In this document: piece by piece, positions 13,895 through 59,768 of the stretch | How positions within the stretch are numbered: the stretch's first letter is position 1 | How the letters are laid out: each line of letters begins with the position of its first letter | DNA from: Psammoneis japonica | Lineage: Eukaryota | Length of the DNA: 64,000 nt | Direction: 5' to 3' | Assembly (NCBI GenBank): GCA_008632985.1 | Contig: QPGO01000020.1 | Location: 496,001-560,000, forward strand | Notes under the pieces: generated by a model | The model's input: the letters and a program-made list of their open reading frames with translations, nothing else | Databases searched by the model: none | Told to the model about the DNA's origin: nothing | Translations under genes and position numbers: made by a program

Positions 13895-15882
13895 CTAACT
13901 GCGCACCTGGAATGCGGTGATCCATGCCTGCTCCCATGGCGTTCTGGTCAAACATCCTCTGCTCATCCTCTTCGCTCATCTCAATCGGAATTTCCGTCAC
14001 CAGGCACTCAGTCGTGAGAACCAATCCAGCGACACTGGCCGAGTTTTCAATGGCGTTAACAGCCACCTTGGCTGGGTCAATGACACCTCTCTCCATCAAG
14101 TCGCAGCATTCCAGGGTGGCAGCATCCCAGCCCCAACCAAACTTCAAGAACAGAGGACAACGAGAAGATTCCGTGAGGATGCATGACAACAACACTGGGG
14201 CAGCAGGATGCAAAGACAACTTGCTCCCTTTTCTTCCATGAGAGCTTGAATCTTGGCTAGAACCACGGCTCCTTCGACACCTACATTCTCTGCAACTTGC
14301 ATGGCAGGAGCCGACAATGCCTTGATGAGAATGGGAGCACCTTGCTTTTCATCGTCGCTGTCCATTGCTTCAATGCTCTTGTCACCCACAACGTTTTGGG
14401 GATGCACAAGGCACGATCCTCCGCCGGGTAAAATTCCCATTTCTCAGCACTGTCGACCAAGTTGAGGGCATCCTCGTGACGGAGCTTCTTGTCCTTCAGC
14501 TTGGTTTCGGTGGCGGCGCCCACTTTGATTCGTGCAATGCCACCGCCTAAGGCAGCGATGCGCTCTGGACACTTTTCACGATCAAAATCCGTGTCCACCA
14601 CTTCGGAATCCTTTCGAAGCTGCAGGACATTGCATTGATGGATTCTTCCTGTTTGCTGTCCGCAACAATCGCAGTGAGTTCCGTGGCTGTTCCCAACACG
14701 TCAATTGTGACAGAGTCAAGCGTGACGCCAACTTCTTCTGCAACAAAGGTGGCACCTGTGGCGAACGCAATGTCTTGTGTGTGCTCCCTTGCCTGTTTCT
14801 TAATCTGGGAGCCTCAATGGCAACCACGTCCAACACTCCTTGCATCTTGTTGACATTGAGAGCAGAGAGGGCTTCACCCGTTACGTCTTTCGCAACATCA
14901 AGATGGGGTCCTTGGTCTTGACCAATTGTTCCAAGAGGGGGACGACGTCAAGGACATTTTCAATCTTGGAGTCCGTGGCCAAGGCACGAGGATTGACCAA
15001 TTCTGCTGCTTGACGTTGTGGGCTTAAAGTGCACGGAGAAATGTGTCCGCTGTCAATGGTGAGGCCCTCAGTGAATTCAATTTCGTCCACCAGAGTCTGA
15101 GACTCTTCCACCACGGTAGATCCATCCTCTCCAACCTTGTCAGCAGCCTGAGCAATGATGCGACCCATGTCAACCGATCCAGAAGCAATGGTGACAATGT
15201 TCCTCAAATCGCTGATGCCAGTCACATCCTTCACAGAGGTTGCAATTCACGTGAAAAAGATGAATTGGGCATGCAGCACAAACACGATGCGGCACACAGT
15301 CGAAAGACGAGTGATGTTAAAATGCAAGAATGGCACAGTGCACAAAAGTTGCCGTGCCTGTGCCAACTCCTTGATTTCGTCCGAAACGATCCTCGTTTCC
15401 TTGCGAACACCTGTGTTGAGTGCGACGAGGTTGACTCCTGACGTGGCAGATCTCATGCCGTCATTGACAATGGCCTGTGTCATGATTGTCGATGTGGTGG
15501 TTTCATCGCCCGCCTTGCTGTCACTCTTGGATGCCACTTCTTGAGTGAGTCTCGCTCCAACATTCTGCCCGTGGTCTTTTAAGGGAAATCTCTCGCGCAA
15601 TCGTGACGCCATTGTTGACAACTTCGGGAGCTCCACAGTTGCAATCCAACACCACGTTGCGACCCTTGGGACCGAGAGTCACCTTGACAGCATTGGCAAC
15701 GGCGTCAATGCCGTCGACGAGGGCTTTGTGCGATTCTTCACGAAAGGTCACCTTCTTGACGTGAAGCGAGGTGTCAAAGGCAACAGGAGGTGTTTTGATG
15801 CGCGAGAGACAAACGCACTTGTGGACGACGACTGTGTCCGCACAATGGCCACCAACAGCGAAACGGCAATGGAAAATCTCAT
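13895..15882 (-). pseudogene. cpn60: Plastid-targeted chaperonin 60 (GroEL family) pseudogene with two introns, TpA-depleted
   Basis: Presequence [14 protein letters not shown]...[75 protein letters not shown]; many frameshifts. Confidence 0.93.
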
Positions 15883-16354
15883 GGTGTGATGGTCGTAAAG
15901 CGTGGCTTTCAACACACACTTAAACACCTGTTGTTTCACACAAGCATCGCGCAAAGTCAAATGCCGACTGTCAGCCAGTCACGTGCGTCCCTCAACGCAT
16001 TTTGGTTTGAAGCTCGTGGACAGCGGAAGACAAGTTGAGAAGCTCTAGATCCTTTTCCTTCCAGTTCGCCAGTCCCCACTGACAAGGAGCTTCTCCTTCT
16101 CGACGCGCCATGGTGTCATTCATGCAGAGTTCCACCGACTTGACAGAATCATCGAGATCGGTCGTCTCAACTGCAACACCAAGATTTGTCGAGACAAGGC
16201 TGAAACGGACGCCAAGAGGTCCCTCGGTTTGTTTGGGAGTGGGTGGAGGAGTGGGACCTGGCACAGGCCGCGGGGTCGGAATGGTGGGAGAAGCTGGTTT
16301 GGGTGTTAGACTACGTGGTCCAGTGCTTTATGATGAATTTAACTTTCGGCGAAG

Positions 16355-16520
16355 ACTGCACTTGTCAATTGATGTTTTGGCGATTTTGTCGCACGTACGA
16401 TCGGATGCGACAAATTTTGTCGGACGTGCGACAAATTTTGTCGCATCCGACAAACCCCGACAAACCCCGACAATGTACGACAAACGCCGACAAGAGCCGA
16501 CAAACGCCGACAGACGGACG
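16355..16520 (+). repeat. Left terminal/subterminal inverted repeat with palindromes (cgacaaattttgtcg) and ~10-bp cgacaaa repeats
   Basis: Read directly; reverse complement of ~22000-22220. Confidence 0.75.
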
Positions 16521-16778
16521 TTTGCGACACTGTCTCCACGAGATTCGCCCAGAGTGCGGCAGAGAGCTAGAGGCCCCAGCTGCCTGCTGATAAAAGGCAC
16601 AGCACAGCAGCGCACACCGGCACATTCCGCTCCACTGTGTAGAAGCGTGCGATGTTGTCCCGGTGTTGACGAGAGTGTGACATTCGGGGACATGGAACAA
16701 CAATGCAAAATTTCGAAATCAAAAAAATCTCATGCTCACACACTGCATGCAAATCAATCGTCTCGCATCTTCTGTTGT

Positions 16779-17741
16779 CCAAACATCACAGAGCTCCGAT
16801 CCGTGCTCCATTTGGTGCTGGACAGCAACGCAAACCGCTTCAAATGCCCAGGGATGCTTCCAAACTGCATGACGGAATCTGTCTCGTAACACTGCAAAGT
16901 TTTTAAGCCGTCCATTGAATGACTCATGCCGACAGCGAGCTCGGCTCTTGAAGTTCTTTAGCATCGGGGGATCAATGGAGCTTGGCAGCGCAATCTTCCT
17001 GCCCGAGCACCCCCCGTCAGCAATGGCACACTTCCCAACTGGGATTTTGTCTCGGAGCGCTTGGTTGAGGTTCCCGAAGGAGCTCTTCGCGAAGTCGCCT
17101 GTCGTGCTCATCCTCCTCACCCGTGAAAATTGTGAGATCATTTTTTCCACCTCTGAAGGGACCGGCAATCCACACACAGTTTGAAGAGTGGGTGTGGATT
17201 CCAATCTCGCCTTGAGAGCAGGACCATTGAATTTGTGAGACCAGTGCCGTCTGTCTTTGTTGAGCCGCGGATGCTTTTTCTCCCAAATCGGAAAGTCGGT
17301 CGTGTCCTCCGTAATTGCAAGCATTTCCGCATCTGGATCATCAATTGACGGAAGCCAAACGATTTTTTGAGCTTTCAATGCTGCGATTCGGCGAATCCAT
17401 TTCCACACATGCTCTCCCCGGGAGTGTCGCTCACAAACTCCAAAGCGCTTTGAAGCAATCTTGGCATTCTTTGGGCAAGTGAAAAGAAAGCAGTGCCCGA
17501 TCATAAACATCTTGAAGCCATTCTCTGACACCTCTTGTTCCTCGGGTCTTGCTGCATTGTTGTTTGTGCTGCATGGATCACGCCAGACATTGGCCACAAC
17601 ATCTGGGTTAGAGCCATGATGAGCCTTGAAGATTTCTCGGCTGGTCTTCAAATGCTTGGCGTCGGTGATGCTGTTGTCAAAATCGATGCGGAGGTGCTTC
17701 ATTCCACGCGTGAGCACATCACTCGCAGTGAGATTGTTCAT
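16779..17741 (-). pseudogene. Harbinger/ISL2EU-type DDE transposase, frameshifted and hypermutated
   Basis: DTTDFPIWE, WSHKFNGPALK, CVWIAGPFRGGKNDLTIF (other frame), IADGGC, RARCRHESFNGRLKNF..L.DRFRH, AFEAVCV.VQHQME. Confidence 0.88.
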
Positions 17742-18354
17742 TTTTGGTTGGAGATCCAGTTGGATGACATTGTGAGATGATTCAAGTGTGCTCCTTGTGT
17801 GATCTGGCAAAATCATCGCTGAAGAGGACTCGCTTGTGTGCATGTGCTTGGACTCGCCAGTGCACTTGCATGCGTTAAAACGGCAGAGCTTCACTTTTTT
17901 GCTTTCAAACTTTCGTGGGAAGTCCAACAATGTCCCAACTCGCATTCCCACAATTGGGAAAAAAGCATCATGATGGATTGTCAGGAGGGTGATCGAATTA
18001 AAGTGTCAAAAGGGAAGTTTGAGAACAAGCTCGCAACCTGCACCAAGGTTTGTCCGCAGGCGTTGCCACTCAGGTTCGATGACAGGTCGTCACCTGACGA
18101 CACGTTCTCAAGCGTCAGCTCGTTCATTTGGACGAGAATGAAGAGCTCCAGGGTCTTCTCGATCAAATCAAGCAGCTTGGCATTTATGACAGAGGGGAAC
18201 AATTCAAACAGGACGTTACACACATTTGTTTGGGCGACAGACGACGACGAGCGACAAGGAAGAGCAAGGACTGGATGCGAGGAGTGACAAGGAAGAACGA
18301 GGAATGTGTGAGGAAGAACAAGGAACAGGAGCAGGTGATAAAGAGTGGTGTGTT

Positions 18355-18470
18355 CTGCTGCTGCTGCTGCTGCCAGCACTGCTGCCACTTGCGAGCACTC
18401 AAGGAACAGAACTGCTGCCACCACTGCTGCAACTGCCTGCTGCCACTGCCACTGCTGCCACCACTGCTTG
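18355..18470 (+). repeat. Mixed CTG/CCA trinucleotide tract (inferred ex-(CTA)n)
   Basis: ctgctgctgctgctgccagcactgctgcca...ctgctgccaccactgctg...ctgccactgccactgctgccaccactg. Confidence 0.8.
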
Positions 18471-18504
18471 CGGCACGGTGCAATGCCAATCAAGAAGCAC
18501 CGGG

Positions 18505-19658
18505 CTAAAACTGAACATTCGCGTTGGAGACCTGAATGTTGCTGGCACCCGCGGCCTTGGTGCCTCCTTCTTCGGCAATCAACCACCACTTGACGCATCC
18601 AGTAATGTCCTGCTTGATGCCTGCAGTTGCCTCTGTCCATTTAAGAAAGACTTCCTGGCCCCTGACGTTGGGTTTCGTCTGAGAAGATGCGTTGACCAGC
18701 TTGGTGCCACGTGGGAAAACCAACATCCAGCATTCACAGGGGTCTTGAGCGGATGCCTTGAGATTCGCATTGAGGTGAGCCTCCTTCGCGACGTCCTTTT
18801 GTGGCGGTGGTGGCAGAGTCTGCTTTTTGTTGGTTCCATCGTTCATCTTGTCATGAATTTGTTCAATGTCCTTGAGCTCAGAGCTCACAGCCGGCCCCTT
18901 GATGCATGCAACACGGCCATGAACACTCGACGGCACAGAATCCGCTCCTGGAATGAAAGCAACCCACTCGTTTCTGTCGAGAACAGAAACAACACGACGA
19001 ATCTCGAATCCCGACCTGTTGAAGGACTGGTGCGTGATCTTGTCAATGTGGACAACTTGAAAGCCACCGAGCCTGCAGTTGTCGAGACCCACAGGAACCC
19101 AATGGGGGTTTTCCAAAGAACCCAAATCAGTTTGAGCAATGAGGTTATCAACAATGGATGCTGACTTCGAGGGAGTCGTCAACACACGGCTGGCGCGACG
19201 AGGGGTCAAGCCAGCCATGCGCGACACATGAGCCACTCGAGGTGGAGACCACAACACGTCATCGTCGTCGTCATCATCACCCAAGTCCACCAATGAAATG
19301 CTGTCAACCATTTCATGAAGCTTCCTCGACTTTGTCCTCAGCTTTATGGTTGGCCTCCTCGGCCTCCTCGGCCTCCTTCATCAAGTGTTCCTCGAGCCTT
19401 GGAGGGTGTCGGCAGCTGGCTCCACCTCACACTTGTGCAACAGTTCGATGTAGGAGGTGATCTTGGACTTCTTGAAGTTGTCACTTGTTTCTGAAACCAA
19501 CGGTGTTTCTTCACATTGCCGTCCATTCATCCTCCTTTTCCGTAGAAACGAGGGTTCGAATCACAAATGTCCTTGAGTTTGGCTGCAAAGAGCCCGCCAT
19601 CGTGCTCAAGGTCCTGGACCAACTGCGCCCATTTCACGTTTTTCTTGACTTCCTCCAT
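18505..19658 (-). pseudogene. Frameshifted accessory ORF inside the transposon, function unknown
   Basis: Protein-like segments in consecutive frames (MEEVKKNVKWAQLVQDLE...; 268-aa ORF 18505..19311 with no Tyr). Confidence 0.45.
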
Positions 19659-20088
19659 GATTTTACATGAGCTGAGTGAAAGTGTAACATGACAAAAGAC
19701 CGTTGTGGCGTTTTGGGATTGATGTCGTTGGGTTTTTGAACTTAATGTCGTTGGGTTTTTGAACTGCGCAAAGAGAGAAATCATTCGCGGAAGAAAAATT
19801 CCAAGAATTTGAAGTTTCACTCCAAACGAAATTTGAAATTTTGAAATGTTAAAGTGCCCGTGTGAAGATTCACATTGAAATCATGGAAAGTTCTTAAAAA
19901 CCGACCAGGATTGGATTTGTAAAAATTTCAATGTCGTTGCGTCTGCACTGTCAGATTTGAATTGACCCCCACAGCGATCGACCGCAGCTGGGGTCTGCTA
20001 GCGAGAGCTGCTCCGTCCCAATCCGTTGCGACTCATGACTCACTCACAATGTCGTGCGCATGGCACAGGGCCTAATTTGTCTGCAACG

Positions 20089-20722
20089 ATGCCGAAACCA
20101 AAGAATTCTGAGTGTGTTGACTGGACAACTAGTGAGGCAAAGATGGTGCTATATGCCGATTTGCAGAGTGGCAGGTTGTCACTGAACGAGAGCGAAGTGA
20201 CGGCCGAAGAAGCATGGGAGCGTACAGAAACCATGCTGCATTCAAAGGCATCGTCATCTTTGAACAATTCAACCTGCGCCTGCGAGATCATCGTAAACAA
20301 ATTCTGTTGAAGAGAGAGAAATCGAATGATCAAATGAAGGCATTGATCCATGATCGACGGCTCTGTCCAAGGAAGGACGTGAACAACCGTGGCGAGCCGG
20401 TGTGGGACATTTCACCAGCAAAAGAACTCCTCAAACAAGACCTCTTGCAGAAGAAGCACTTGCACATGACACCATCCGAGCTTCGCGCCTCAAGACCAGA
20501 ATTCAAATCTTCTGCAAGACAAAGTTCAAGGAGCACATCCATCAAGCAGTCCGCAAGGAGAAATTCATAAACTGCCTGGAGCAAGTCCGCAAGAAGAAGG
20601 AGGAGAAGGCAAAACAAGACAAAGAGAAAGCAATGCAAGCGAGGATAGAGCTGCAGAGAAAGAAGGAAGAAGCTCGAGCAAAAGAGGAAGCAGAAAGAAA
20701 CGGCAAACGCAGATGCAACTAA
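20089..20722 (+). pseudogene. Frameshifted accessory ORF inside the transposon with an internal two-fold W..S.AK..L..DL motif
   Basis: DWTTSEAKMVLYADLQSG... and VWDISPAKELLKQDLLQK..MTPSELRASRPEF..FKEHIHQAVRKEKF across three frames. Confidence 0.5.
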
Positions 20723-20910
20723 AAGCAGCAGCATTGCCGCAGCAGCAGCAGTGGCAGTGGTGGCAGCAGCAGTGGCAGCAGCAGCAGCATCCATTCATTA
20801 GTTCTACAGTGGCAGCAGCAGCAGCACTAGAGCATTCTTTCCATTCCTTGTGGCAGCAGCAGCAGTGCAGCAGCGAGGAGCTCCTGGCAGCAGCAGAGGC
20901 AGCAGCAGTG
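20722..20910 (+). repeat. Mixed CAG/TGG trinucleotide tract (inferred ex-(TAG)n)
   Basis: cagcagcagcagtggcagtggtggcagcagcagtggcagcagcagcag. Confidence 0.85.
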
Positions 20911-21457
20911 GTCAAACTAAAAAGAGCACTTGCAGACAAGGCAGAAGCAGAGATTCTACAACAGTTAAGAAGTGGAGATTCTACAATGCCAAATTGTCAG
21001 TTCTGCTGCCAGACAAACAGTTGCAGTGCCGAAGACGACAAGTTGCCAACGGGAACGCCGTGCCCCCCCCCCTGGCTCTTTCAAGACAATTGTGACACCA
21101 TTGCTGCATCTCATTTCCCTCAAATGCAGCAACAGCACCACATCCCAAAGGCACCATAGAGTGTGCGAAGTGCAATGCTTTTGTCTTGGACAAACAAAAT
21201 GTCGCCAGAAACCACAGGAGGGAAGCACCCGTCACTGTCCCCATGAGAGTCGCAAGTTTCGAGGTGGAAAATCATTCCACCATCGCCCATCATAGTCTCC
21301 CCATCCCAGTCCATGCAAGGAAGAGCAGAGAGAATTCTGGGACTGCTGGCGAGCAAATCACCAAGCGAACATGCAATCAACACCACTGATGGGCAAACCA
21401 ACTCGGGAAATGACATGGGATCCCCAAACCGCACGTTCAATTCGTCCAACAGAAGTG

Positions 21458-21916
21458 TCAAACAGGAGCTGCGCAGCTCAACTGCTGAGCTGATGATTGA
21501 GCTTGGAACCCAATCTTCAAATGTGGTGTCACCGTCAGCGGCACGCATTGATAGAAATGGCAGAAATGCTCGGGATGGAGGAACGGCAGTCCGTTGTCGA
21601 TGAGCTGGTTAAATTCGCCAGTGTTGGCATGGAAACTCCGCATGAGGTCACACATGTCTTCAAGCAAGGAAAGGACCTCCATCCATCGCTTGATCATCAG
21701 TTTTTTTCCCACGCCAATGTTGTCTCGGAGATGCGGTCGGGTGCTTGCAAGGCGTTTCCACGCAACATGTGTTTCTCGACCAAGGCACCAGCGCACAGCC
21801 TCGAAACGCCCCAGACTCTTGACATCAAGGAATGTCAAGATGTGATCTTGCAGCATGCTGTTGTGGATGAAATGTTGGAGACCGCCGAGAGCGGCATGAT
21901 CGTCGCTTTGCATCAT
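21458..21916 (-). pseudogene. Possible F-box-like gene fragment carried within the transposon
   Basis: LQDHILTFLDVKSLGRFEAV....W resembles the F-box pattern (I.sFL....L.r...V.k.W). Confidence 0.35.
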
Positions 21917-21999
21917 CGTGCAAAAGAGACACAGTGTCAACGGAGACGTTGGCGGTTGCTGTGGCGTGTGCAGTGGGGGGGGTGGGTGTTTCGTTCGTG

Positions 22000-22220
22000 A
22001 GTCGTCGTGTCGTGACGTGACGTGACGTGTCGTGACGTGTCGTGTCGTGTCTTGTCGTGTCGTGTCGTGTCGTGTCTTGTCGTGTCTTGTCGTGTCTTGT
22101 CGGATGCGACAAAAATTTGTCGTATCCGACAAATTTTGTCGGATGAATTTTCGTCGATGACATCGATCGCCAAATTCTGTCAATTGCCCCACTTGTTGAA
22201 ACGACATCGCCAAAGTGCAG
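22000..22220 (-). repeat. Right terminal/subterminal inverted repeat: (gtcgt/gacgt/gtctt)n pentamer array plus cgacaaattttgtcg palindromes
   Basis: Read directly; mirrors 16355-16520. Confidence 0.75.
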
Positions 22221-22384
22221 GTTGGTTGTTAATGACATTGATCATTTTGTGACTTAGTTGAACAATGTTTCTGTCCCGTTTATCGCCAACCCGGACATTT
22301 TGTCGCAATTCGCGTCTTTTCGTGACAAATCATCAATTCATTTAAGAAATTGTCGCCAAATGCGACAAAATGCCGTGTGTCCCT

Positions 22385-23570
22385 GCGCATGTCTTTGGAA
22401 GCTGCCGCTGGTTGTTTGCCAGAGGTGAAATGCTGATGTGATGATTGCCTGTCAAAGCAGCCCGTGGCTCCGTCGGGGACACGCCACAATGTTGCCAGCA
22501 AACTCGCTTTGTGCATGTGCATGGAGTGCTTTTGCAGGTCCAACCATGGAGTGGCATCATGCATCACAGACATCGCCGCCCAGCCAACGCACTTTTTGAG
22601 TGCTTGTGCTGTTTGGGTGCTCTGGAGAGCCCCCCAGCTGCTGCATTTTTTGAAATGCATGCTGAGCACCTGCTGACATCCAAGACCAAGATGGTGTGCA
22701 TGACAGAGGGCAGCCTTTTTCATGAAGGGTTGTGAGGCAGCTCAGATCGCCACTTCAGTTGCTCTTTGAGCACTCTTTGAGCACTCTCTTTGAGCACCTT
22801 GCACACTCACACATCTGAGCTCCCAAGGCCTTCAATGAGCTGCATTCTCCATGCCCCACAGTGTTTGAAGATCTGCTTTGTTGCACTGGGGTTGCTGTGA
22901 TGGCCATCTTCTTGCTGAGTTGCCACACTTGACAGCTCGCGCTTTTTTCAGAGTTGACTTCCATTGTCATTTTGAGCAGATGCAAGACATGAACAGAAAA
23001 ATGCAACAGAGAGAAGCCATGATTCTGCAGTCATGTGTGCAGTTGCTGGTGATGTTGACAGGGCAGCAGCACTCTCACAGCTCTTGCCAATGTTGTGTGC
23101 AAAAAAGTGCAAAAAATGCCGAGTCAGATCAGCAAGGGTTTTGAGGCATGATGCAAAAAAAAAGCACGTGTGCCTCCAATCTTCATCCAGTCCAAACCAA
23201 AGCAGCAGACAATGATTTTGCACAACAGGCGTGTTTCTGCATTCAGTGTGATCAACCAGGCTTCTCTTCAAAGCTGCTCCAAGCATCTGACTCTCAGTGG
23301 AAGTGAGTCAACCTGCAAACTTCTTGTGATGCTCCTGCTCAAATGGCACACCGTGAGCTGTTTTTGGTTGCTCCACTTGATGTGCTTGCCAAGGAACATG
23401 AGAGTGGCCAGCAAATGCTCTTTTGCACAACTCAAGGGATTCTTCAAACTCTGATGGCTGGCCCATTGTATTAAAGTGATGGTGGCCGGCACACTGCTTT
23501 GCAGCAGTTTGACCCAAGAAGACAGCACTCTCCAAGACACGGCAGCCACTGCAGCCAATTGCAACACTTG
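22385..23570 (+). repeat. Dispersed repeat copy B (homologous to ~12355-13375), heavily depleted of both TpA and CpG
   Basis: Collinear shared blocks with copy A. Confidence 0.85.
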
Positions 23571-24668
23571 TGTTCACAGAGCTGCTGCCACAAGCCTGTG
23601 ACAACAACATGTGTGAGCCAAACAGTGAGCATTTCATGATTCCCCATGTGAGAGCCACTTTCTGCAAAGAATCACCTGCAGACAAGGGGCACAGCTTGTG
23701 CTCTCATGTCCTCACATGAAGCTGCTGGCTGTTTGGCACTTGTGTGACTGCCACAATTGTGCTCAAGAACCTGAGTCTGGACATGGAGATCAGGTGCTCT
23801 TGTCAATGACATGCAGCTGGCAACTCAGCCAGCTCTGCCAATGTGCACAGAACATCTGAGACAGCTGTTTTCAAATGTCTTCATCCAGCGACATTGCACG
23901 ATGGGCACTTCCCCAAAACTCCAGAGAAGGGTGGTGCCAACGCTGCTTCATTCAGAGGGTCCCAATCTTGCCTCTTTGTTGGCTTGTTGTGGTCATGGAC
24001 ATTTGACACCAGACATCCTCTTTGGACCATTGAAAGCTTTCTGACATGTGAGTTTGCTGCTTCGCTGTTCTTGTGGGCACACATGCGCCAGGCTCGTCAA
24101 GCTGTGACTTCTCCTGTCAACATTGTGGGTTTCTGCAAAATGGCACACAAAGGCAGCACATGATGAAAGAAGTGAGTTTTCTGTGCATCTCATCTTTGAT
24201 GAGTTGCTCAACATTCAACCTTGTTTTTTCTTCGTCTTCCTCATTTTCATTTTCATCTTCTCTTCCTTTTCTCAGCTTGGGCCACCTTGATTGACAGACA
24301 CTCTCCAGATGACCAGCTCACTCTTGCGACATAAATCCATCTTTAGAAAATGATGGCGACGGACAGTGGTGACCTTTCGACGGAATGCCGCTCTGCGGGC
24401 ATTCAACAGCTTCAGAGCAATGATGCAATGATGTCGTTGCTTTGCATGGCCTCGGAATTTTTTGTTTTTGATTTTTTTTCTTGTGGTACTGTGTGGTGTC
24501 TTTGGAAATCATTTTAAAGCTACGTCTCCGTAGGAGACATAATCGTATTCAATCTGTGTTGAAATGTACTTACGCCTATTTTACGTGCTTCTATACCATG
24601 AAGCCGGAATTGCGGGTTCCACGTTCTCTCAGAAATTTGTCAAGCAGCCAGCAGAACGGAGCCGCACC

Positions 24669-26529: not shown

Positions 26530-28290
26530 GCTCGTGCGCAAGAAATTGACGGCGTCTCCAAATCGAACTACGACTGACCAGGATTCGCACAGCAACAGCT
26601 GCCACTGGAGCCAGTGGAGCTGGCCAACGCAGCGGACGCAAAAAGCTGTCCGCGCGCGACACACACCTCTCAGTTCGGCTCCAACAATGTCTGTGACCTT
26701 GGCAACTCTCAGGCTAAAGGAGTGCACTCCATGCTTGCCTTGGTCAGGTCCTGTTACAATGGCAGTCCAGAGGAAAGCAAAGCTGCTTGCAAAGAATTGG
26801 GAGAACTTCTCTGTTCTTGCCATCACGGTGCGGCAAAGAAAGGGTGCTGTCTTTGCATTGGAAGAGAAAAACTTTTCACTTTGTTCAACAGCAACAAGGA
26901 AAACACCCATCTGATCAAGTGCTTGACTCTGCTCCTCAAAAGCTCAAAAGGTGGAGGGCAAAGGTCACCCATGCCTGCAGAGGCAGCACCATGAAGCCAT
27001 GAAAAGCAAGTGTTGCCAAAGCAAGCAATCCCCCCAGAAGCCACTTGCTGTTTTTTGAGCACATCTTGGCTGGAATGTTGCACTTTGTTCCCAACACTTG
27101 ACCTGCTTCAAAACACAGCAATCCTGCCAGCGAGAGAATCAAATTTTGATTTTTTGCAAGAGGGGCCAACAAGAGACATTGAAGAGTGTTTTTGTGGGGC
27201 AGAGGGTCACAGCAGCATCTTGAGTTGTTTTTGGGTGTGTGCAATTATCTGGCAAAGGCCAAGTCTGCCAATCCCAAAATGTGCCAACTTTGCAAATTGA
27301 GCACTGGACAGATGACAAGCAATGGTGTGTTCTTGACAAAGGTCTTCCAAAAACTGGCGCACTTTGCATGGTGCAGCTCATTTGTTTTTTTGACAAGTGT
27401 GCATCAAATGTGCTCAACAGCAGACCTGCACACTTGCAGTGCCCTTGGCCAGCTCAAAAGTGCCAGGCAGGCAACCAGATGACTGCCTGACAAACAACCA
27501 TGCAAACAATGAAAGCAGTGCCCAATGAAAGAAGAGTCAACATGTATGGGGAGCTTTTTGGCTTTCTTTTGAAAACTTAAATCTCACCTCATTGTCATCA
27601 TGGCGCGGATGGTTGGGTCTCACATGCGCTGTTGCTCTTGTGGCAGTGCTGGTGCACTGACAAACCATGTTTTGTGTGGAGGGAGTTTCTGAATTTTTCC
27701 AAATCAGTGATTTGGATGGCATGTGGTCTGACCCTGGCTGGTGCAGTTGCTGGCAGAGTGCGGCAATGCACGGTGTGAACAGCAACCTTGCAATGTGGAG
27801 ACACCCAGCTGCGTGGCTGCGTGCACAGCATGAGTTGCTGCTCTGCAGGACATCAAGCTTGCAAGATGGTGACTCTCTCACAATCTTGCAAATTGACAAG
27901 GTTGAGGAGGTTGTCATTTGTTTTTTCATTGTCACGAGCCAGTCTGGCAGTGTTGTGTTTCTTTGTTTTTGGGGCGTTGTCGGCGATGCTCGGCTTTGGG
28001 CACATTTGCTTGGGGGGCAACTCCAACACCCCGCACATTTTTCTAGCAGAATTTTTGCACTTTTAGAGCCACAGGCAGAGATGTTGCCTCACACAAAAAA
28101 CATTGCCATTTGCTTTGGCTCACTGCTATTTTTAGAGTGTTGGCTTCAACCGCCGCGCTGATCAGACCGCGCCCGCGCCCGCGCGCTGCCCGCATCACCG
28201 CCATGACGCTCGATGCCCGCAACCGCAACCCGCAACGCACAGCCCATGGTACTTTCTCCCCTTTCTCTCATCACCCACCACCAGCACTCT
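26530..28290. other. TpA-depleted decayed insertion between the two RING-like paralogs
   Basis: TA nearly absent, CpG low in the core, CpG-rich ends; no identifiable protein. Confidence 0.65.
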
Positions 28291-29672: not shown

Positions 29673-32600
29673 TAATAACATGCGAACACACTTGTTCTGT
29701 GCCGACTAAAAGTTACATTTAATCAGATACACTCTTCTCTCTTACCGTAGAGAGCAAGTGCAATAGTCGCTAGCAGGGTCCACTCGCTGGACTAGTTCTG
29801 CTGGAGCTCCAGGGAGATCCGTTCGTTTACCATGCAACGGACAGTTGTGATGGTTCGAGGAATGCGGCGTTTCGTTTCGTTTTCAGCCAGGAGGGTCCGC
29901 AAAGTTTGGAGATGAGGCGAGGATGGGGCAGACATACAAATAATGGAGGTGCGGCACTCGCTCTAATTAGATCGGGAACCTGTCCAAATTGAAACAGACG
30001 CAAGGACAAAAGTCCGGTTTCAACGGATTTCCGTTGACCACAATGCTTTTTCACTGGCCTTGAATGTTGCATTCATGTTGAGCAATGAAAACTTGCTCTC
30101 TTTGTGGCATGGTGTTTGCACAAAATGTGCAAGTCCACAACTTGCATTGCCAACATTCATCGTTGAACATGCACATTTCCCAGTTGCTCGCAACACGCCC
30201 AAACTGCAGCAGCACAAAGTGGTGCATGCCGCCGGGTGCCGCGATGTCTCAATGCGCCTTTTGCCGATTTTCCATTTTTGGCACACCTTTTGCCAATTTT
30301 TGGTTTTCTTGCTTCCTTTTTGATGACAAGCGCGCAAGTCATCCCACAAGCTTGGCCCCGCTGCGCGCCTGCAGGTTTGCGGGTTTGTCAAAAGTGCCCC
30401 AAAAAAATTGGCTGTGTGCCGCTGCCTCGACTCTCAGCAGCACTTTCGCCAGCCTTTTGCTGATTTTGCTGCCTGGGCAATGCTCCAACACACCCCGCAA
30501 GCTTTTTCCTTGCAGATCGCTTGCTTGGTTGCGCCCTGGTTGAGTGCCGAGCACTGAGTGGGTGAGCCACGCAACACCCCGCTGAACATGCACAGCACTC
30601 ACCTCTTGCTTTTCTTTGATCTGCGCCCATTGTGCTGCAGAAAACTCTGGAGCATGGAGCAGCTTCAGCGGCAGTCTGCAATCTGCTGCTGCTGGGAAGA
30701 GCAGCGCTGAGCCAAGACCGCTCTTCCGCGAGTGGCCAACCTGCCGCTTTTGGGAAGAGCAGCATTGCTGGGTGGTGAGCGCCAGCAACAAGCACAGCTG
30801 CGCTGCCACAAGCAGGTGGGGTGAGAACACCTGGCAGCTGAGTGGGCAGCACAGCCCTTTTTGGCATGCATCAAAAGACTTGCTCTGCACTCCAAACTCT
30901 TGGCCACATTCGCCCCCATTTCCAGCGCTGGCCTCTCTGCTTGCTGCATCTTTTCTGGGGTTTGCACTGCTCTGCACAGGCTGATGTGGAGTGCACTTGC
31001 TCTGGAGCAGATGGGTGGGGAAAGCAAGCTCTGCTTTGTTGTCATTTGGCCAGGTGCACCCTGCTGGCAACGGGGAAGGCATCCAAGTGTTTGTCTGCTG
31101 ACACCGCGCAGACGCTCTTGCTTGCCTGAGCAAACTTCCACTGCTGCTTGTTGAGTCCCGTCCCTTGGCAATGCTCAGCATGACATGAAAAGATTTGTCC
31201 ACACCGCATTTTCAACATCTCCTTTTCTCACCTTTTGCTCATCATTCTTTCTTCTTGCTCCAGAAGACACAGCATTTTGAAAAGGTTGGTGGCTGGCACA
31301 TGGAGCACAGCCGGGTGTGTGCACTTGCCAGGAAGCAGCTTGCCCACAAAGGGAAGGGCTGCAGCTGGCTCTTGGGGCAGGGGCAGAGCTCTGCACCATT
31401 TGTGCTGTTGGCATTGGAGGCATCTCCCGTCATCGTCAAAGCTGTGGCGCTCCTTGCTGAGCAACCCCGGTCTGTTGAGTTGAGCCTCTCAACTTTTTTT
31501 CAAGGCTTTGTTTGCTTCTTTCATTTTTGGCACAGTTTTGGCAATGTCCCCGGCTTGCTTGAGCTCCTTTCAACATGCCATGAAATGGGGTGCATTGTTG
31601 TGCATCACATCAATTTTTGGTCTCTTGCCATCAAAAATTTGACATTTCACCCCGCTGAATGCGTGGACAGCTGTCCGCTCATTCTGCTTGTTGGCTGTTG
31701 TCACTTTGACAGCTGGCGCAGCTCCAACAGAAAAAAATGATTTCTGTGGGTGGCTCAACCAGCTTGATGATGCCTCTTTTCTGATTGAGTTTTTTTGCAA
31801 TCCAGAAGGCTGGTGCAGGTGACTCTTGGTGCTTGGGTGCAGACTTTGGTGCCGCCAACTTTGTGTGCATCAACTGTCCTCAACACTTTGTCTTCTGGGC
31901 TGCTCTCTCAGGCAATGCCCTTGATGTCAAACTCCTCCCAACCATTTTTGAAGTCTGCAGTTGTCTCCCACTTTGAAGGTGGTGCTTCAAGCAGCTCTTC
32001 CCATGACACACTGACCTTCATTTCTTGCTCAACTTCCCAGCCACTGCAGCAGTTGGCACATTTTGTGGGCAGTCTGAAAACATGAACACTCATGTCATGG
32101 CTCCAATGGTGAACAAATTTATGCAACAAAGCAGCAACAAACCTGGGAGAGTGGCTGAAGGCCCAGAGCAGCTGTCTCACTTTTTGACAACATCCTTCAA
32201 GTGCAGTGGCTCCATGAAGGCACTTGAAAAGCGGGGCTCAGTGTGAGTCAGTGCCAACCTGAACACAGCATGACATGGAAGTGTGCCCCTTTTGTGTGTG
32301 ACAAAGCACCGCCTTGTGCAGGTTCCGTGCTTTCTGTTGAAACAGTGGCTTGCTGATCTTTGCATCAAGCACATTTGCAAGAAGATTTGCTGGCTTCATG
32401 AGCTCTCTCTCCAGCTCTTTTGGGCCCAGAACAATGCAACGGACCTGCGTTCAAAAAGAGTTCCAGGGCAATGTGTTGATTTTGTCTTTGCTGCAGGCAC
32501 TCTTTTGCAGTGCTTCCTCAACAACCTCAGTGATGTTCCCGCATGGGACAAAGAAAACATCAGATGATCGAGCCATGAACACTCCAAATGCACCATGGTT

Positions 32601-32699
32601 TTTTGACAGAACCTCCCTGAGCCAAGTGAGTGTGTGCCCAATGTCTTGTTTTGTGTGGAGACCATGCTGCAGCTGTGTTGGCTCATCTTCAACATTTGT

Positions 32700-34195
32700 G
32701 TCACACTTGTCCCCATCATCTCCATCTTGATTCTCAGCATCATGGGCTGCAGCTGGTGGGGAGCATCTTTGTCATCATTGCCATCATCATCTTGATCTGA
32801 TGCTCTCTCCTGTGCTCTTCTCATGTGTGCAGTGAACTCTGCCAGCACTTGTTGCTGTTTGGGTGCAAAGTGCAAGTTTCTGACTTCCCGCGTGACCCCT
32901 TTTGTGCACCATCTGCAATGGTGTCCTCAGTGCTTTGGTTTGACATTTTTGGCACAACTGCTGCAGGTTGCTTGGCTGTGTCCATTCAAACTTTGACAGC
33001 AGCATGATTGAAAAATGCCACGTGCAGATGCCGGCTCTGCTGCACCCAGAATTTGTTGGTTGTGCACAGCAACAATGAGTCATTTTCCTTTGGTTCCTTC
33101 ACATCTGGTGGTGGAGTGGCTCTTGGGTCCACAAAATGCATGGCAGTCATTTTCAAGCTCATTTTCAAGCATGACATCATTTGAGTGTGCAAGTCAGTGG
33201 CAGCGCGGCAAAACAGTGCTCCTCATCAACAGCAGCTTGCTCCAATCAAACAGTGTCACAGTCAGCTGTGCATGTTCACTCCCATCCAAAAGGAGCCATG
33301 GCTGTGTCATGAAGACCAGCTGTTGTTCTCTCCACAACACCTTGCTCCCTTTCAATCTGAGCCAGCTTCCTTTGTCTGCATCAACCTTGGAAGCCACTCT
33401 TGTCTTTGGCATTTGCACACACTCAGCCTTGTCATCTCCATCTTCATTCTTGATGTCAGGTGGCAGGGCTGCAGTGGGTGGAACATCTTCATCATCGTTG
33501 CTGTCATCTTGATTGGACACTCTCTCCTGCACTCTTCTTGCATGGCAGCACATGGTGAAATCTGCTGGTGTTTGTTGCTTTTCAGGTGCAGCTCAATCAA
33601 AAGTTTCTGGCTTCCCACACAACATCTTTGGCCCCATCTGCAACAACCACATCCTCAATGCTTTGACTCAACATTTTTGGCACAACAGCTGCAGGCCACT
33701 CAACTGCATTGATTCAAACTTTGATGGCAGAGTGCAGTCAATGGAAATGCCACAAGGAGCTGCTGACTCTGCTGCACCCAGAAAAGCAGCCTCTGCAGCT
33801 GCCACACAGAGACTTGTTGGCTGTGTGCAGCAAGAACAATGAGTCATTTTCCTTCAGCTCCTTTGTGTCTGGCAGTGGAATGGCTCTTGGATCCACAAAA
33901 TGTGCAAAAGCCATTTTCAAGCATGACATCATTTGAGCGCATGAGTCAATGGCAGCATGGCAACAGCTCTCATCATCAATGGTGGCTTGCCTCCAATCAA
34001 ACAGTTGCAGTTGGTTGTCTTTGTTTGCTCCACATCCAAAAAGAGCCTTGGCTGTGTCATGAAGACCAGCTGCTGCCCTCTCCTCCACAACACCTTGCTC
34101 CTTGACCATGTGCTGCAGGCATGTTGCATTGGCCAACAATGCTCCAGTCTGAGCCAGCTTCCTTTTGTCTGCATCAATCTTGGAAGCTGCTTTCT
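32700..34195 (+). repeat. Diverged tandem duplication (~32700-33410 and ~33420-34195)
   Basis: Shared acatttttggcacaac, ctctgctgcacccagaa, aacaatgagtcattttcctt, ttttcaagcatgacatcatttgag, ggctgtgtcatgaagaccagctg, tctgagccagcttcc. Confidence 0.88.
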
Positions 34196-35908
34196 TCATG
34201 AGTGCAGACTCCCCCAAGAGAAGCTTGAGTTCATCAAGCAATGGCAACGCAAAAATGCTGTTTTCCAAATCTGGTGCAGTCACTTGAGCAGTGGGGGGGG
34301 GGCACCCTTGGCCCTGACAGTCCACTTGGCATCAATTGACAATGCGCCCCAGTTGTTCTTGGCACATTTGATGAGGATGTCCTTGGAGGTGGCATCTGCA
34401 ACTTGCTCGGCAGAGAACGTGATCGGCAGCTTGAGAATGTCAAGACATGCAACAAATTTGAAACCTGTTCAAGGCTTCCTTGTTGGAGCCCATTTCACCT
34501 TGCTCTTTGTCAGCTGATGCCACACCACCCAAGAAAGCATGCTCCATTTCTTTTTCTGTTTCTGGAATGAAGGAATGGAGAATGGGCTCCTTGCCATTGC
34601 TGTTGTCTCCTTTGCAAAATGAGCACTCATCACAGCACATCTGTCTGCTGTGACAACATTTGGGCCTTCAAAGCCATGCACTTGACTCTGTTGGTCAAGG
34701 CCATGCAGGCTGTCCCCCACTTTCAATGGGGTTGTCCCCACAACAAGTCAGAGCATCAGCATCTGTCCAAACTCATTCATTGCCAAGTGCAGACCAACAA
34801 AACCTCTTGCACTCTCAGCCAGGAGAGCGACCTTTCCAGTTTTGACAAAATGGTCCCCAGACAGGAATGGGCCACCATTTGTTGTCATTTTGTGGTGACA
34901 GTGAGAAATGCTGGATTCAATTTCTAATGTTGTTGCTTCCAATGGACAGATCACAGATGGCACCTGCATTTCCACCCACTCATCATCAAAAGTCAAAATG
35001 CAAAGCTCAGTTTTTGATGTGACTCTCTTTCCCAACCAAGTTGTGAGCAAAACTGGCATGTCCTTGCCATGTCTTTGCTTTCACAGCATGTGTTGCTTGC
35101 ATCTCTCAGTCAGTGACTTGACAAGCCCAAACCTGCTCATGTGCCACATGACAGCTTAGATCTCATCTTGTCAGCAAGCACCCATTCTTTGATGGCACCT
35201 TCAGGGGCAATTTTGTGTCCATTTTGCTGCCACCAATTTTGAGCATGCTCAGGTGATTGTGACAAGAATGATGCAGAGTCATGACCACAGAATGTGCGGC
35301 TCTCTCTGTTGCTTGTGCAGCGGCTCTCCTTCTGCACTTGTGTGCACATGCACATGCCCAACACTGGCTTCATTTGGATGCTCCCCACATGCATGCCTGG
35401 CACAATCTGAGCATCCAAGATGGCTGACACACTCAGTTTCTCCAGGATGAAAAAGGCAGCAGGGCCTGCATTCTGGCCAAAACAGTGACCGCCAACAACC
35501 CCCCAGCCCAAAAAACATGATGGGTGGCAGCTCTGCAAAATCCTCACAAGAGAGTGGCATGGTGTGCTCTTTTTCCACATTTTCGTGTCCTGGACCAAAA
35601 TGAAAGTCATTTGCTGTGTCAGAAGACAAGCCAACCATTGAAGAGCAAAACATCTCTGATGCCAGCTTCCACATGGCTCATGTTTGCCATTCAGCTTGAA
35701 CCCAACATGCTTTTTGAGATGCTCTGACAACTTGTTGCACACTTTCAAGGTGTGTGTGCCATCTTTCACAAAAGGTCATTCCTGTCTTGTTGCGAAGCCT
35801 TTGCTGTTCCATTGGAAGCACAAGTTTCTGCTGCCCTGTTTCCATGGTGACTCCTGGCAGCAGCTGCAGCGCCAATGGCAAAACTGTTCTCCTCTGCTGT
35901 TTTCTTTG

Positions 35909-35973
35909 CTGCACTCATCATTCTTGCCACTGTGTTTTCTGCACTCATCATTCTTGCCACTGTGTTTTCTGCA
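35909..35973 (+). repeat. Perfect 30-bp tandem duplication (ctgcactcatcattcttgccactgtgtttt x2)
   Basis: Read directly. Confidence 0.9.
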
Positions 35974-37682
35974 AACCAGTTGTCCCTTCTTGTGGCTTCA
36001 TTTCTTGCAGAGTGTGGGTTGTCGACCACTGCACAGGACTTGAGCCTTGATTCATGTTTGTTGCCCAGATGCAAACAAGCACATCAAAGTTCAGAACATG
36101 GGCAGATTGCAAATTCATTTGTGTGCTCATTGCCTGGATTTGTCCAATGATGTTCTTAAAGTGCACACCAGTGGCAACCTTTGTTCACTGGCAACATTTC
36201 TGCAATGGCAACCCTGGTTCACGTGCGACATTTCTGCATTGCTCAGAATTTGACATCATCTGACCACTGTTCATTTGATTTTCTTTGTGTCAAAATGGAA
36301 ACAACACACTCAATGATTTGAGTTTTGGCCTCAAGTCAAACAACCTTTTTGGGTTGTGGGCTTGTCGTCATTCAGCCATGATCATGAAGTCTTTGCTGAC
36401 AAATGGACAAACTCACAGCTTGATTTTTTGCTTGTGTTCTGCAGCTGCTGCTTCTGTCAAACAAGATGCAAGAAAAGGCAGGTTGAGTCATCTCCAGATG
36501 CAGCAGAGTGGTGTGCAGGCACTGCAGCTCAGCTGCACAAGAGCTCTCAGCAAGCCACAGTTTTGAAAGCAAGGGTGCTTGCCATGGCCGCCACAATGCC
36601 AAAACTGTGTGTGCGATGATGAGAGCAGTGAGGTGGAGCAATGGAGCAGACAAAAGACAACATTGTTGAATGAAGCAAGAGAAAAAAGTGGTGGTCTGAA
36701 GAGCAGTGGTCAACAGAGTGAATGAGCTGGGAGAAGAATGAGCTCTCACACACAAAAATAAGATCCAACACTTCTGCACAAGTTGATCAAGTTTTGTGTG
36801 CACTTGCATGCTTTGGCAAAAGAACACAGAGTGCAGTGAAGAGCAGTTTTTGCCTTCGCCCTCCTCCTTGTTGTGTTTGTTGGTGCAGAGAAAAATCATG
36901 TGATCAATGGGCTCTTGCGGCAGAGCCTGTTGTTGGATGGGCTCAGGCAGTTGCTGCCAACTTCAGATCTGACAAGATTAAGAAGGTGGGCACACATTAG
37001 ATAACCCAGAAAACATTTCTTCACAATTATTCAAGCGTCACGGGCGTGCGGAAATTTGGAAGCAGGAAAAAGCATTAGATGCTTCTCCCGATGACGACGA
37101 CTAGTCAATCTTTTTGCTTGCCGATGTTACTTGCAAAAATTCCATTCGGTTCCGTTCCATGCTGGAGGAGTTTCTGCAAAGTCTCTGCAAGAATGATGAT
37201 GCTGGAGTAATGTAGATTGTGTGGCAATTCTCAACAGCGAACAAAACGAAGACTTGTTTTGCAGCGGAACGGTTCTTTACAAATTACTATGGCAATACAA
37301 GAATCGTACAGACTTATTAAGTGAGTGAGCTACCCCACTAGAGAGAGCATGGCTATATATTATATATTGTTGAAGCTCGGCATGATTTTTCATTACGTAC
37401 TCATTTCTCTTTGTGCCTTCGTTCCTACAAGATTTTTCTCGATAGTCCAAACGGTTGCGGTAGCTTGCACCAAGACGGGACCAAGGTGACTGATTTAGGA
37501 ATGCGTGTGCAATGGAAAATCGAACGGAAAACATTTGGTGAAACAGTGGCGACAAAACAAATCGGGCCTGACAATCCTACCTCGCATCGGTTGTGTCATT
37601 AGAAATACTTTAATTCCAAAATGCGAAAAGAAAGTTTTCAAGGGAGCAAGAGGCGAGTACGTATAAAACAAGCGCAAGACGA

Positions 37683-45308: not shown

Positions 45309-46099
45309 GTATGTTTTGCGTTCAATGCTTGGAATTCCCTGTCTAGCTAGATATCGGGCAGTTCAAGCTCGGCTCATTTGGGAAGTCTAGGTAGCTAGCC
45401 GCTCTGGTCGCCAGCTAGAGAGAGGGTAGCCCAATTGCCGGCGAGAGCTGCTACAGTAGGCTGGTGGAAAGAGCTAAAAGTTCTGTTGTACGAGCTCGTC
45501 GAATTCTTTTGCAAGAAAGCGCTCAACGCAGTCAAAGGGTATACTTCCAGTATTGGATCTAAGAAAGACCTTTTGACGTTGCTGGCTAATGTTAATATTG
45601 GAGAAGTTGTTTGTGCCGCTGACAAGATCGCTGGTATTGTGTTCTATCTTCTCTTCGCGTTGGAACCAAGAGAGCACCAGCAAGAAACATTGGCGGAGAA
45701 GAGCTTGAGGTACCAGGGGTTTCACGGTGTTGGCGGCGGTGGAAGTCCATCTTATCCCAACGATGCGCCAGTTCCAATTCGCAAAAGATCTAAACTCCAG
45801 CGGCTATTGCTAAATTGAAGAGCAGCGAAAATGACAAATCGAAGAAATGATGTGACGATATAACGGAAACTGCAAATCATTAGACCTTACAGGGGACTGT
45901 TGCCCGACAACTGCTGGCGTCATGCTAGCTAAGATAAAAGAGAATACCAGCATCTCATCTCTCTATTGTTTATAGTCCGTGTCAAATCTTTCAATTGGTC
46001 AGAGAAACTGCCTCCAGTGGAGCACAGATTGCTCACTACAACACACACTTTTTCACATTTACCCTCTCTTTCACATCATGCTAAGAATGAATCATCCTG

Positions 46100-48340: not shown

Positions 48341-48760
48341 TTTCTACTCTCGCCACTGCTCTAGAGAGACCCAGATCACGGAAGAGGTCGAACGGTGGCA
48401 AACACGAAAGCGACGCCATTCGCTTTAAATGACTTCTTGAAACGCGCACTCATGCCGGTAATCCAACCCACACATCATCGCGAAGCAGCGCTGTCGCGCG
48501 TTCCACCCCGCCACTCCGCCCCGCCCATGCCAAGCAACAAAGATAGGCCCTACAGATCTCGAATCATCATCGCATTCATCGCATCTCGTCGATAAATTAC
48601 ACCCCGCTCATGTCATTGATTTGACGACGGGTAAACAACACTGACGGCGCAAAACTACCCTCCTGGCTGAGGCTGATCGACCGTCAATGCTTGCCGTAAA
48701 GATTGAAAACAGGCTGCTGGTTCAGAAGAGATATCTGGTGAAGGTACAAGCACCAACAAC

Positions 48761-59760: not shown

Positions 59761-59768
59761 TCACCCCG

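Follow-up and report, generated by a model that had tools for sequence, protein, structure and literature searches.

Hypermutation that is confined to repeats and acts as a genome defence is, to our knowledge, known only in the C-to-T form, in repeat-induced point mutation (RIP) and with APOBEC. RIP acts on any duplicated DNA, before meiosis, and is dependent on an enzyme of the RID/DNMT4 type. As described in excerpts of the literature on ascomycete fungi, its changes are C:G to T:A, mainly CpA to TpA, and repeats become TA-rich and AT-rich. Here we describe a stretch of 64,000 nucleotides (nt) from the diatom Psammoneis japonica (assembly GCA_008632985.1, contig QPGO01000020.1, positions 496,001 to 560,000 of the forward strand; “the window” means this whole stretch, and positions are counted from its first letter) in which the repeats carry the reverse mark. 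A PIF/Harbinger transposon in the window has a transposase gene with no tyrosine codon, and the repeat islands to which it belongs have lost most of their TA dinucleotides, with TG and CA in excess.

The likeness to RIP lies in the near-saturating transitions at one dinucleotide, the sharp borders and the dead, poorly recognisable copies. The direction, however, is opposite: in the window T:A goes to C:G, TA is erased, TG and CA are enriched and G+C is unchanged, and the lineage is a diatom. As to the duplication trigger of RIP, transposons and a host pseudogene were struck in the window, and a gene pair of 855 bp and 95.4% identity was spared. Diatoms have a DNMT4 related to RID whose function is given as unknown, and no mutation signature is mentioned in the excerpts of that report (PMC9998398).

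Other enzymes leave comparable traces. According to excerpts of PMC4866542, APOBEC/AID enzymes change C to U (G to A) in TC, CC and WRC contexts on cDNA. The window resembles their footprint in being an enzyme-like, strand-local, short-context hypermutation recorded in transposon copies, but here it is A:T to G:C at TAY (Y, pyrimidine) and has struck a host pseudogene as well as a DNA transposon. ADAR prefers a 5' U and a 3' G neighbour, and stop loss by UAG to UGG is a hallmark of A-to-I editing in the fungal sexual stage. ADAR and the ADAT-type editing of fungal mRNA share with the window an A-to-G change that requires a 5' U/T; they act on RNA and leave the genome unchanged, whereas in the window the change is in DNA, on both strands and in non-coding sequence as well. 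The 5' T of the ADAR neighbour rule is seen in the window, but the 3' order is C~T > G > A and not a preferred G. Laboratory adenine base editors take A through I to G on DNA, and the “YAC” context given for one evolved TadA variant in excerpts of a 2026 review (PMC13109818) overlaps the TAC of the window; these are man-made enzymes, whereas the window gives a mutational footprint alone. In the same excerpts a DNA adenine deaminase is described as “not found naturally” (PMC13109818).

Results

A transposase gene without tyrosine

The stop-to-stop open reading frame (ORF) at 16719-18005 on the minus strand encodes 428 amino acids (aa), of which 22 are His, 15 are Cys and none is Tyr. An initial annotation, made from the letters of the window, had described a Harbinger transposase with zero Tyr in 410 codons and a stop apparently converted from TAG to TGG. 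The absence of Tyr is borne out over these 410 codons, which run from ATG 17951 to the TGA at 16721-16719 inside the 428-aa ORF, and the motifs it had quoted (IADGGC, RHWSHKF, KAHHGS, FTCPKN and VQHQME..LCDV) are all found there. With the Tyr content of the family at 3.0%, the chance of this absence is (1-0.03)^410 = 3.8e-6.

Homologs were collected by a word-index search, which gave 54 at E<=0.001 among 2,612 candidates; with the window sequence they form an alignment of 55 rows (A1). The best of them, P0001 (302 aa), has an E-value of 2.1e-72. The ORF is assigned to its family because of these 54 homologs, 42 of which carry PF13359 (DDE_Tnp_4), and not by a direct Pfam match: the whole ORF gave no family at E<=1, and its C-terminal piece (the last exon), at 11.8 bits (E 0.19), fell short of the PF13359 gathering score of 24.8. 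P0001 itself reaches 34.2 bits against that profile, over positions 1-156 of 158. The homologs are about 300 aa long, and their N-terminal MLLSPADVL is matched in the window by MNNLTASDVL, starting at ATG 17741. The family named in the initial annotation is thus upheld while its length is not, only about 300 codons (17741-16782) being transposase.

Alignment to the family, as the initial annotation had advised, shows what has become of the tyrosines. The eight columns where at least 30% of the homologs have Tyr are occupied in the window by H, H, R, C, H, A (a broken codon), C and H, which is His or Cys at six of the eight. Among columns conserved in at least 70%, Tyr is kept at none of five and other residues at 86 of 109 (Fisher p=6.7e-4); four of these five have become H, C, H and C, and the codon of the remaining one is broken. 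The frame break at KYEI makes the “A” seen at the fifth conserved Tyr column an artefact. Three further columns of A1, D234, D330 and E361, are invariant in all 55 rows, window included, and the motifs DGTD, ADxGY and RHE suggest that they are the catalytic triad.

The gene is nevertheless broken. A single deletion shifts the frame within KYEI (Table 1), and a separate ORF in frame B, 17020-17337(-), bears NCVWIAGPFRGGKNDLTIF, homologous to the family motif VWIxGPxRGGxHD. The frame would be restored by a putative intron. With an X at the break and this 61-nt stretch skipped, the corrected model aligns to residues 3-302 of P0001 with 51% identity and 283 bits, compared with 254 bits for the uncorrected model. 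The terminal DV ends at 16782, at the column where the family proteins end, and is followed directly by TGG, as had been claimed; a change from TAG to TGG would be the one step that fits the regional process described below. The sequence past DV, which had been judged non-protein-like, is aligned by homologs only through chance extension. All of the ORF outside the transposase codons is read-through, kept open by the fact that neither TAA nor TAG can occur where there is no TA. Taken together, the alignment indicates a dead PIF/Harbinger copy that is Tyr-free, frameshifted and stop-less.

The ORF contains 8 TA in 1,287 nt (TA observed/expected ratio, o/e, 0.10), and at so low a local TA density zero Tyr is to be expected. 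The loss of Tyr is therefore a property of the region and is not specific to the gene. A variant genetic code and a functional Tyr-free enzyme were also considered; both are ruled out by the normal Tyr content of the host ORFs and by the frameshift.

TA loss is confined to five islands with sharp borders

The TA o/e is 0.35 for the whole window, 0.58 for gene DNA and 0.09 for the islands. In 1-kb steps it is bimodal: steps in gene DNA lie at 0.45-0.8 and those in five islands at 0-0.3. Together these islands cover 28,822 bp and hold 157 TA against 1,115 expected at gene-DNA density (5.4 per kb compared with 38.7). CG density is 31.8 per kb in the islands and 57.3 in gene DNA, and TG+CA density is 202 and 147 per kb respectively. 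In the resulting mass balance the islands have lost 33.3 TA and 25.5 CG per kb (58.8 in sum) and gained 55.6 TG+CA; some 95% of the lost TA and CG thus reappears as TG/CA, while other dinucleotides change little and G+C is unchanged. TA-free runs extend up to 2,805 nt.

The transitions between the two kinds of DNA are abrupt. TA density steps within about 100-150 bp at 24332, 29968, 36759/36979, 46082, 48345 and 55956, with about one TA per 10-30 nt outside these borders and none inside. Ordinary intergenic DNA between the genes of the window has a TA o/e of 0.5-0.8.

The islands differ in their CG content. Young sub-islands (the CPN60 pseudogene, the Harbinger element and 55956-60000) have a CG o/e of about 0.8 and 7-9 TA per kb, with about 85-90% of TA gone; older ones (22255-24330, 26755-28044, 29968-36759 and 46082-48345) have a CG o/e of 0.19-0.30 and 0.7-3 TA per kb, and 60001-64000 is intermediate (CG o/e 0.46, 11 TA per kb). 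Since the CG o/e is still about 0.8 where TA has mostly gone, the loss of TA runs faster than the decay of CpG. The older islands share the CG to TG/CA change with the known CpG decay of methylated transposons, but that decay accounts for only the CG part of the loss given above and for none of the TA loss, behind which it lags.

Long false ORFs are frequent in the islands because their TAA and TAG stops have been lost: 129 of the 219 ORFs of at least 100 aa in the window overlap an island. Gene-like ORFs contain 22-43 TA per kb and 1.3-4.1% Tyr, and island ORFs 0-16 TA per kb and 0-0.9% Tyr. A Pfam search of 128 island ORFs of at least 100 aa gave CPN60 fragments, RVT_2 and otherwise matches at chance level. 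In the third island (29968-36759) there was no match in any ORF of at least 100 aa, and the element there is therefore degraded beyond recognition.

Two other sources of such composition were rejected. Microsatellites are ruled out by the 72 of 28,822 island bases that lie in (TG/CA)n of at least 4 units, and foreign DNA with a composition of its own by the diatom-like CPN60 copy and by the presence of TA at the same places in other copies.

The loss follows a three-base rule on each strand

Ratios of island to gene-DNA frequency were determined for each tetranucleotide with both strands pooled. They are lowest for ATAC, ATAT and GTAC (0.026-0.030), followed by ATAG (0.077), CTAC (0.114), ATAA (0.13), GTAA (0.15), CTAG (0.23) and CTAA (0.41), with TTAA at 0.98. 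These values were fitted with a per-strand multiplicative model, in which the adenine of each strand survives independently with a probability set by its 3' neighbour; survival is 0.89 for TAA, 0.51 for TAG, 0.18 for TAC and 0.155 for TAT (R2 0.986). The order TAA > TAG > TAY is found in seven of eight sub-islands, TAA surviving best in 7/8; the exception is 60001-64000, where survival is 0.52 for TAG and 0.50 for TAA. In the most depleted islands survival of TAA is as low as 0.05-0.16, and the order is therefore one of rate and not of exemption. Such half-site behaviour is what an enzyme that reads a single strand would show (5'-TAY-3', or equally 5'-RTA-3' for the thymine, with R a purine), and not what a protein reading a 4-bp palindrome would.

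In the islands the o/e of TG equals that of CA (1.62), and both the Cys (TGY) and the His (CAY) outcomes are present in the transposase. Both strands and non-coding DNA are altered, and the change is therefore at the DNA level: a strand-local, repeat-confined conversion of T:A to C:G at TpA. The initial annotation had likewise placed the change on DNA, and this part of its claim is supported by both strands, by non-coding DNA, by the CPN60 pseudogene and by the Copia element; “editing”, the word it had used, does not describe what is a destructive hypermutation of dead copies throughout the repeat islands and no recoding of a single working gene. Its argument, that a cut-and-paste element has no RNA intermediate, is weaker than the evidence of the window itself, namely the TGY and CAY outcomes, the element ends and the non-coding DNA.

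Other affected sequences and unaffected controls

In the CPN60 pseudogene NYGAPE has become NCGAPE and RGYISPYF has become SGHISPC, three of the four alignable Tyr being C, H and C. Its best named relatives are from Nitzschia, Fragilariopsis, Fistulifera and Cylindrotheca. The genome as a whole resembles that of a raphid pennate diatom. Since the pseudogene derives from a host gene, neither transposition nor an RNA intermediate is a requirement of the process. The Copia-type reverse transcriptase (RT) was compared with the best 150 of 5,859 relatives from an exhaustive search: Cys (TGC) stands at four of the six columns where at least 50% of these have Tyr, and Tyr at the other two, while other conserved residues are kept (Phe 5/5, Ile 5/5, Val 6/7).

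Proteins of the same kind are present in databases. One relative of the Harbinger transposase, P0049, has no Tyr and reads C or H at all five Tyr columns, and another, P0042, does so at three of the five; 49 of the 55 alignment rows have no such replacement. Among the Copia relatives, P0230, P0232 and P0321 contain 0-0.2% Tyr against a median of 3.0%. When metagenomic loci of the transposase family were sought with the alignment as query, all 80 of 80 had a TA o/e of 0.37-0.78 and none was TA-poor; with the single transposase protein as query no related loci were found.

The window also holds a duplicated host gene. A TRM5/TYW2-type methyltransferase gene is present as an inverted duplicate, 37683-38537(-) and 44205-45059(+), 6 kb apart and 95.4% identical over 855 bp, with a second stretch of 249 bp at 85%. 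The 39 differences between the copies have a broad spectrum, including 15 transversions and 9 TA/TG-CA changes in both directions. A self-BLAST of the window gave 4 repeat pairs of at least 150 nt, with no pair of long terminal repeats among them.

Comparison with other copies in public sequencing runs

Contigs assembled from two public sequencing runs, X1 and X2, were compared with the window. Transitions make up 334 of the 405 listed differences for X1 and 139 of 171 for X2. Among the 40 best supported of 465 listed differences, the window has TG/CA against TA elsewhere in 25, the reverse in 2, TG/CA against CG in 5 and other changes in 8. In the same set, T is the preceding base in 15 of 16 G>A differences, and A is the next base in 10 of 10 C>T differences. 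One X1 contig (depth ~57) spans 16666-18042 and is about 98.9% identical to the window; its 15 differences in 1,377 nt of island compare with 2 in 2,380 nt of gene DNA. No RNA run was listed as sharing sequence with the window, and the contigs of X2 and of a third run, X3, do not reach 16670-23339; neither result has a bearing on expression.

Discussion

We consider it probable, at roughly 80%, that the repeat islands underwent a near-saturating, repeat-confined hypermutation of T:A to C:G at TpA which erased Tyr codons together with TAA and TAG stops. In such a process a change of TA to TG on one strand would appear as TA to CA on the opposite one, with both strands struck independently and at a rate that would be set by the base 3' of the adenine (TAC ~ TAT >> TAG > TAA). 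It would halt within about 100-150 bp of the island borders, sparing adjacent genes and ordinary intergenic DNA. The decay of CpG to TG/CA would be a separate process that is slower and evident only in those islands most nearly free of TA. By analogy, this may be an active, genome-defence-like hypermutation directed at repeats or heterochromatin, similar to RIP but with the opposite chemistry.

A number of observations weigh against this interpretation. The evidence comes from one 64-kb window, and the comparison of islands with gene DNA assumes that the two were alike in composition at the outset. In the Harbinger element the leftmost 350 bp are near normal in TA (9 TA) while the interior is depleted. 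Both copies of the TRM5/TYW2 gene are normal in TA (42-45 per kb); either duplication by itself does not set off the process, or these genes are kept clean by selection. Of the 25 TA/TG-CA differences between copies (from the 40 best supported of 465), 16 are in TAY, compared with a baseline of 58.6% (p=0.69). In the absence of a TAY excess the context rule is therefore carried by composition; conceivably, no fast sites are left in any of the copies there. Furthermore, of the words sampled from the window only a fraction of 0.61 is present in X1, the best public run, and at several of the listed places every X1 contig has TA where the window has TG/CA. The window and run X1 differ by strain, haplotype, copy or some assembly error, and it should be noted that run contigs drop rare variants, so that the lack of a window allele among them does not show it to be absent.

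These last discrepancies would be expected if a modified base at TA (and 5-methylcytosine, 5mC, at CG) had been miscalled as G or C by a long-read base-caller, since at some places no contig backs the window letter, and differences are denser in islands than in gene DNA. However, restoring all 15 differences of the X1 contig over the transposase, which is otherwise about 98.9% identical, yields only ~17 TA per kb against 39 in genes, and the pseudogenes also bear frameshifts and stops. Tyr-free transposon proteins are moreover found in unrelated public assemblies, and the 80 loci of the same family all lie at the TA o/e given above; such an artefact is therefore very unlikely. Nor is there much to be said for the absence of any special process, be it neutral decay, general under-representation of TA or selection against it. 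TA is indeed under-represented throughout the window, gene DNA included, but a further seven-fold drop with step-like borders, the 80/80 related loci and the broad spectrum of the TRM5/TYW2 duplicate speak against it, and selection on function cannot act on a frameshifted gene that has lost its conserved Tyr and its stop; we give this next to no credence. A-to-I editing of transposon transcripts by an ADAR- or ADAT-like enzyme, fixed by reverse transcription or RNA-templated repair, would explain why all four altered Tyr codons of the Copia RT are TGC, a sense-strand A to G change (n=4), and a preceding U/T is the neighbour classically favoured by RNA adenosine deaminases in their A to G change. 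It would not reach a cut-and-paste element, untranscribed ends, a host pseudogene and non-coding DNA, all of which are affected; CAY and TGY occur in one gene, TG and CA are equally enriched, and the 3' preference for Y, then G, is unlike the 3' G of ADAR. This route is extremely unlikely.

The remaining question is which base is attacked, if hypermutation of the DNA is accepted. In error-prone patch repair a T:G mismatch from deamination of 5mC would engage mismatch repair and a polymerase-eta-like enzyme mutating nearby A:T, and TA loss would be linked to methylated, CpG-decaying repeats. The WA hotspot of polymerase eta includes TA, and repair of this type resembles the second phase of antibody hypermutation. 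AA, however, is not depleted (o/e 1.23 in islands and 1.13 in gene DNA), the changes are nearly all transitions by mass balance, and TA loss is well ahead of CpG loss in young islands, which makes the route very improbable. Alternatively the thymine could be attacked: because TA is self-complementary, an A after T and before Y is equally a T before A and after R, and an oxidase of the TET/JBP kind might turn the T of 5'-RTA-3' into 5-hydroxymethyl- or 5-formyluracil. 5-Formyluracil mispairs with G, and T would become C. Thymine and 5-methylcytosine are both 5-methylpyrimidines, and TA and CG are lost together in the older islands; yet in young islands the two losses are uncoupled, TA being ~85-90% gone at a CG o/e of ~0.8, and the transversions that would be expected from oxidation are hard to accommodate when ~95% of the lost TA and CG returns as TG/CA. 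We regard attack on thymine as unlikely. Deamination of adenine to hypoxanthine in 5'-TAY-3' appears the best of the chemical routes, though we hold it at somewhat less than an even chance; hypoxanthine would pair with C, fixing A:T to G:C. The required 5' T is reminiscent of the tRNA adenosine deaminases, in which the target A34 follows U33. That this lineage has a natural, repeat-directed DNA adenine deaminase, which would turn TAY into TGY in transposons and duplicated genes whichever strand carries it, is a tentative and rather doubtful extension of the deamination route. Such a system would be the chemical inverse of fungal RIP and a natural case of an activity, A to I on DNA, that the base-editing literature describes as absent from nature.

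Should hypermutation at TpA be confirmed, a major marine algal group would possess a second chemistry, with a three-base rule, for the same defence job. It would also imply that nature has an enzyme for adenine (or thymine) in DNA, of a kind that base editing, according to excerpts of PMC13109818, had to evolve in the laboratory. Repeats lacking TAA and TAG carry long false ORFs, and their proteins escape Pfam, which will mislead gene prediction and transposon annotation; Tyr-free transposon proteins are already present in public protein collections. A search of the full-text literature, outside subscription journals and supplements, yielded no paper that describes repeats hypermutated from TA to TG/CA.

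The Harbinger element and other features of the window

Table 1. Features of the transposase gene, the element and the TA-poor islands, with positions in the window.
Feature	Position	Strand	Basis and remarks
Transposase coding-sequence remnant	16782..17741	-	300 codons, 0 Tyr, D/D/E columns kept; alignment to P0001
Broken codon “GC”, 1-nt deletion, frame shift	17209..17210	-	Between AAG (K) and GAG (E) of family KYEI
Putative 61-nt intron GTGAGG...CCAAG	17060..17120	-	Restores frame; suggested by alignment only
TGG at family stop position	16779..16781	-	47/54 homologs end at preceding V column
Read-through tail	16719..16778	-	19 codons to TGA 16721-16719; no homolog alignment beyond chance extension
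PIF/Harbinger-like DNA transposon, ~5.9 kb	16322..22254		Approximate ends, alike in inverted orientation
Left subterminal repeats	16401..16516		10-nt CCGACAAAC-type units and GCGACAAATTTTGTCG palindromes (families D3, D6; inverted pair I7)
Right subterminal repeats	21980..22143		Inverted counterpart of left set (families D1, D6; inverted pair I1)
CPN60/GroEL pseudogene, host gene copy	13923..15769	-	tblastn with Nitzschia CPN60 (P0068): three frames, frameshifts, in-frame stops
Copia-type reverse-transcriptase ORF	63014..64000	+	RVT_2, E 6e-7
Island 1	13900..24330		TA density; CPN60 pseudogene, Harbinger element, older TA-free block 22255-24330
Island 2	26755..28044		TA density; 4 TA, CG o/e 0.23
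Island 3, 6.8 kb	29968..36759		TA density; 5 TA, CG o/e 0.22, TG/CA o/e near 2
Island 4	46082..48345		TA density; 5 TA, CG o/e 0.19
Island 5	55956..64000		TA density; with Copia-type element running off the window

The element around the transposase gene has inverted arms at 16433-16502 and 22048-22117, and in run X1 there are five contigs that break off in loose ends at 16321. Another X1 contig joins 16726 to 21875 and represents a short deletion derivative. Word depth in X1 is ~1,400 at 16003-16669 and ~3,200 at 22006-22672, compared with ~55 for single-copy DNA, which puts the ends at 25-60 times the single-copy read depth. From this depth and from the 16726/21875 junction it follows that the ends belong to a high-copy family of short (~0.8 kb) deletion derivatives.

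PIF/Harbinger elements characteristically have a 3-bp target-site duplication and a second gene, for a Myb/SANT-like DNA-binding protein. The window copy is like them in its ~300-aa transposase with D/D/E columns, in its inverted subterminal repeats and in the short deletion derivative with high-copy ends, and differs in being dead, as described above. A target-site duplication was not found, the 3 bases flanking the proposed (approximate) ends being different. No Myb-like second gene was shown by Pfam on the island ORFs or by a homolog search with the ORF at 18505-19377(-), for which there was no homolog at E<=0.001 among 897 candidates; the ORF at 21247-21600(+) gave a weak match to HTH_74 (E 0.005). 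Within the element lie two CTG/CAG-rich tracts of the CTGCTGCCAC type, 18351-18473 and 20734-20910, mutually inverted and ~2.3-2.5 kb apart. The ORF over the tract at 20734-20910 is 15% Gln.

AT skew is strong (+0.22 to +0.26) in the island segments 20001-22000 and 60001-64000. The zone at 12000-13900 is partly depleted of TA (o/e 0.34-0.42) and, with a word depth in X1 of 1,100-2,300, very high in copy number; it contains many of the TA/TG-CA differences between copies. CXXC zinc fingers bind unmethylated CpG in other organisms, and the ORF at 49478-50365(+) has a weak match to such a finger (E 1.3e-4), below the Pfam cut-off.

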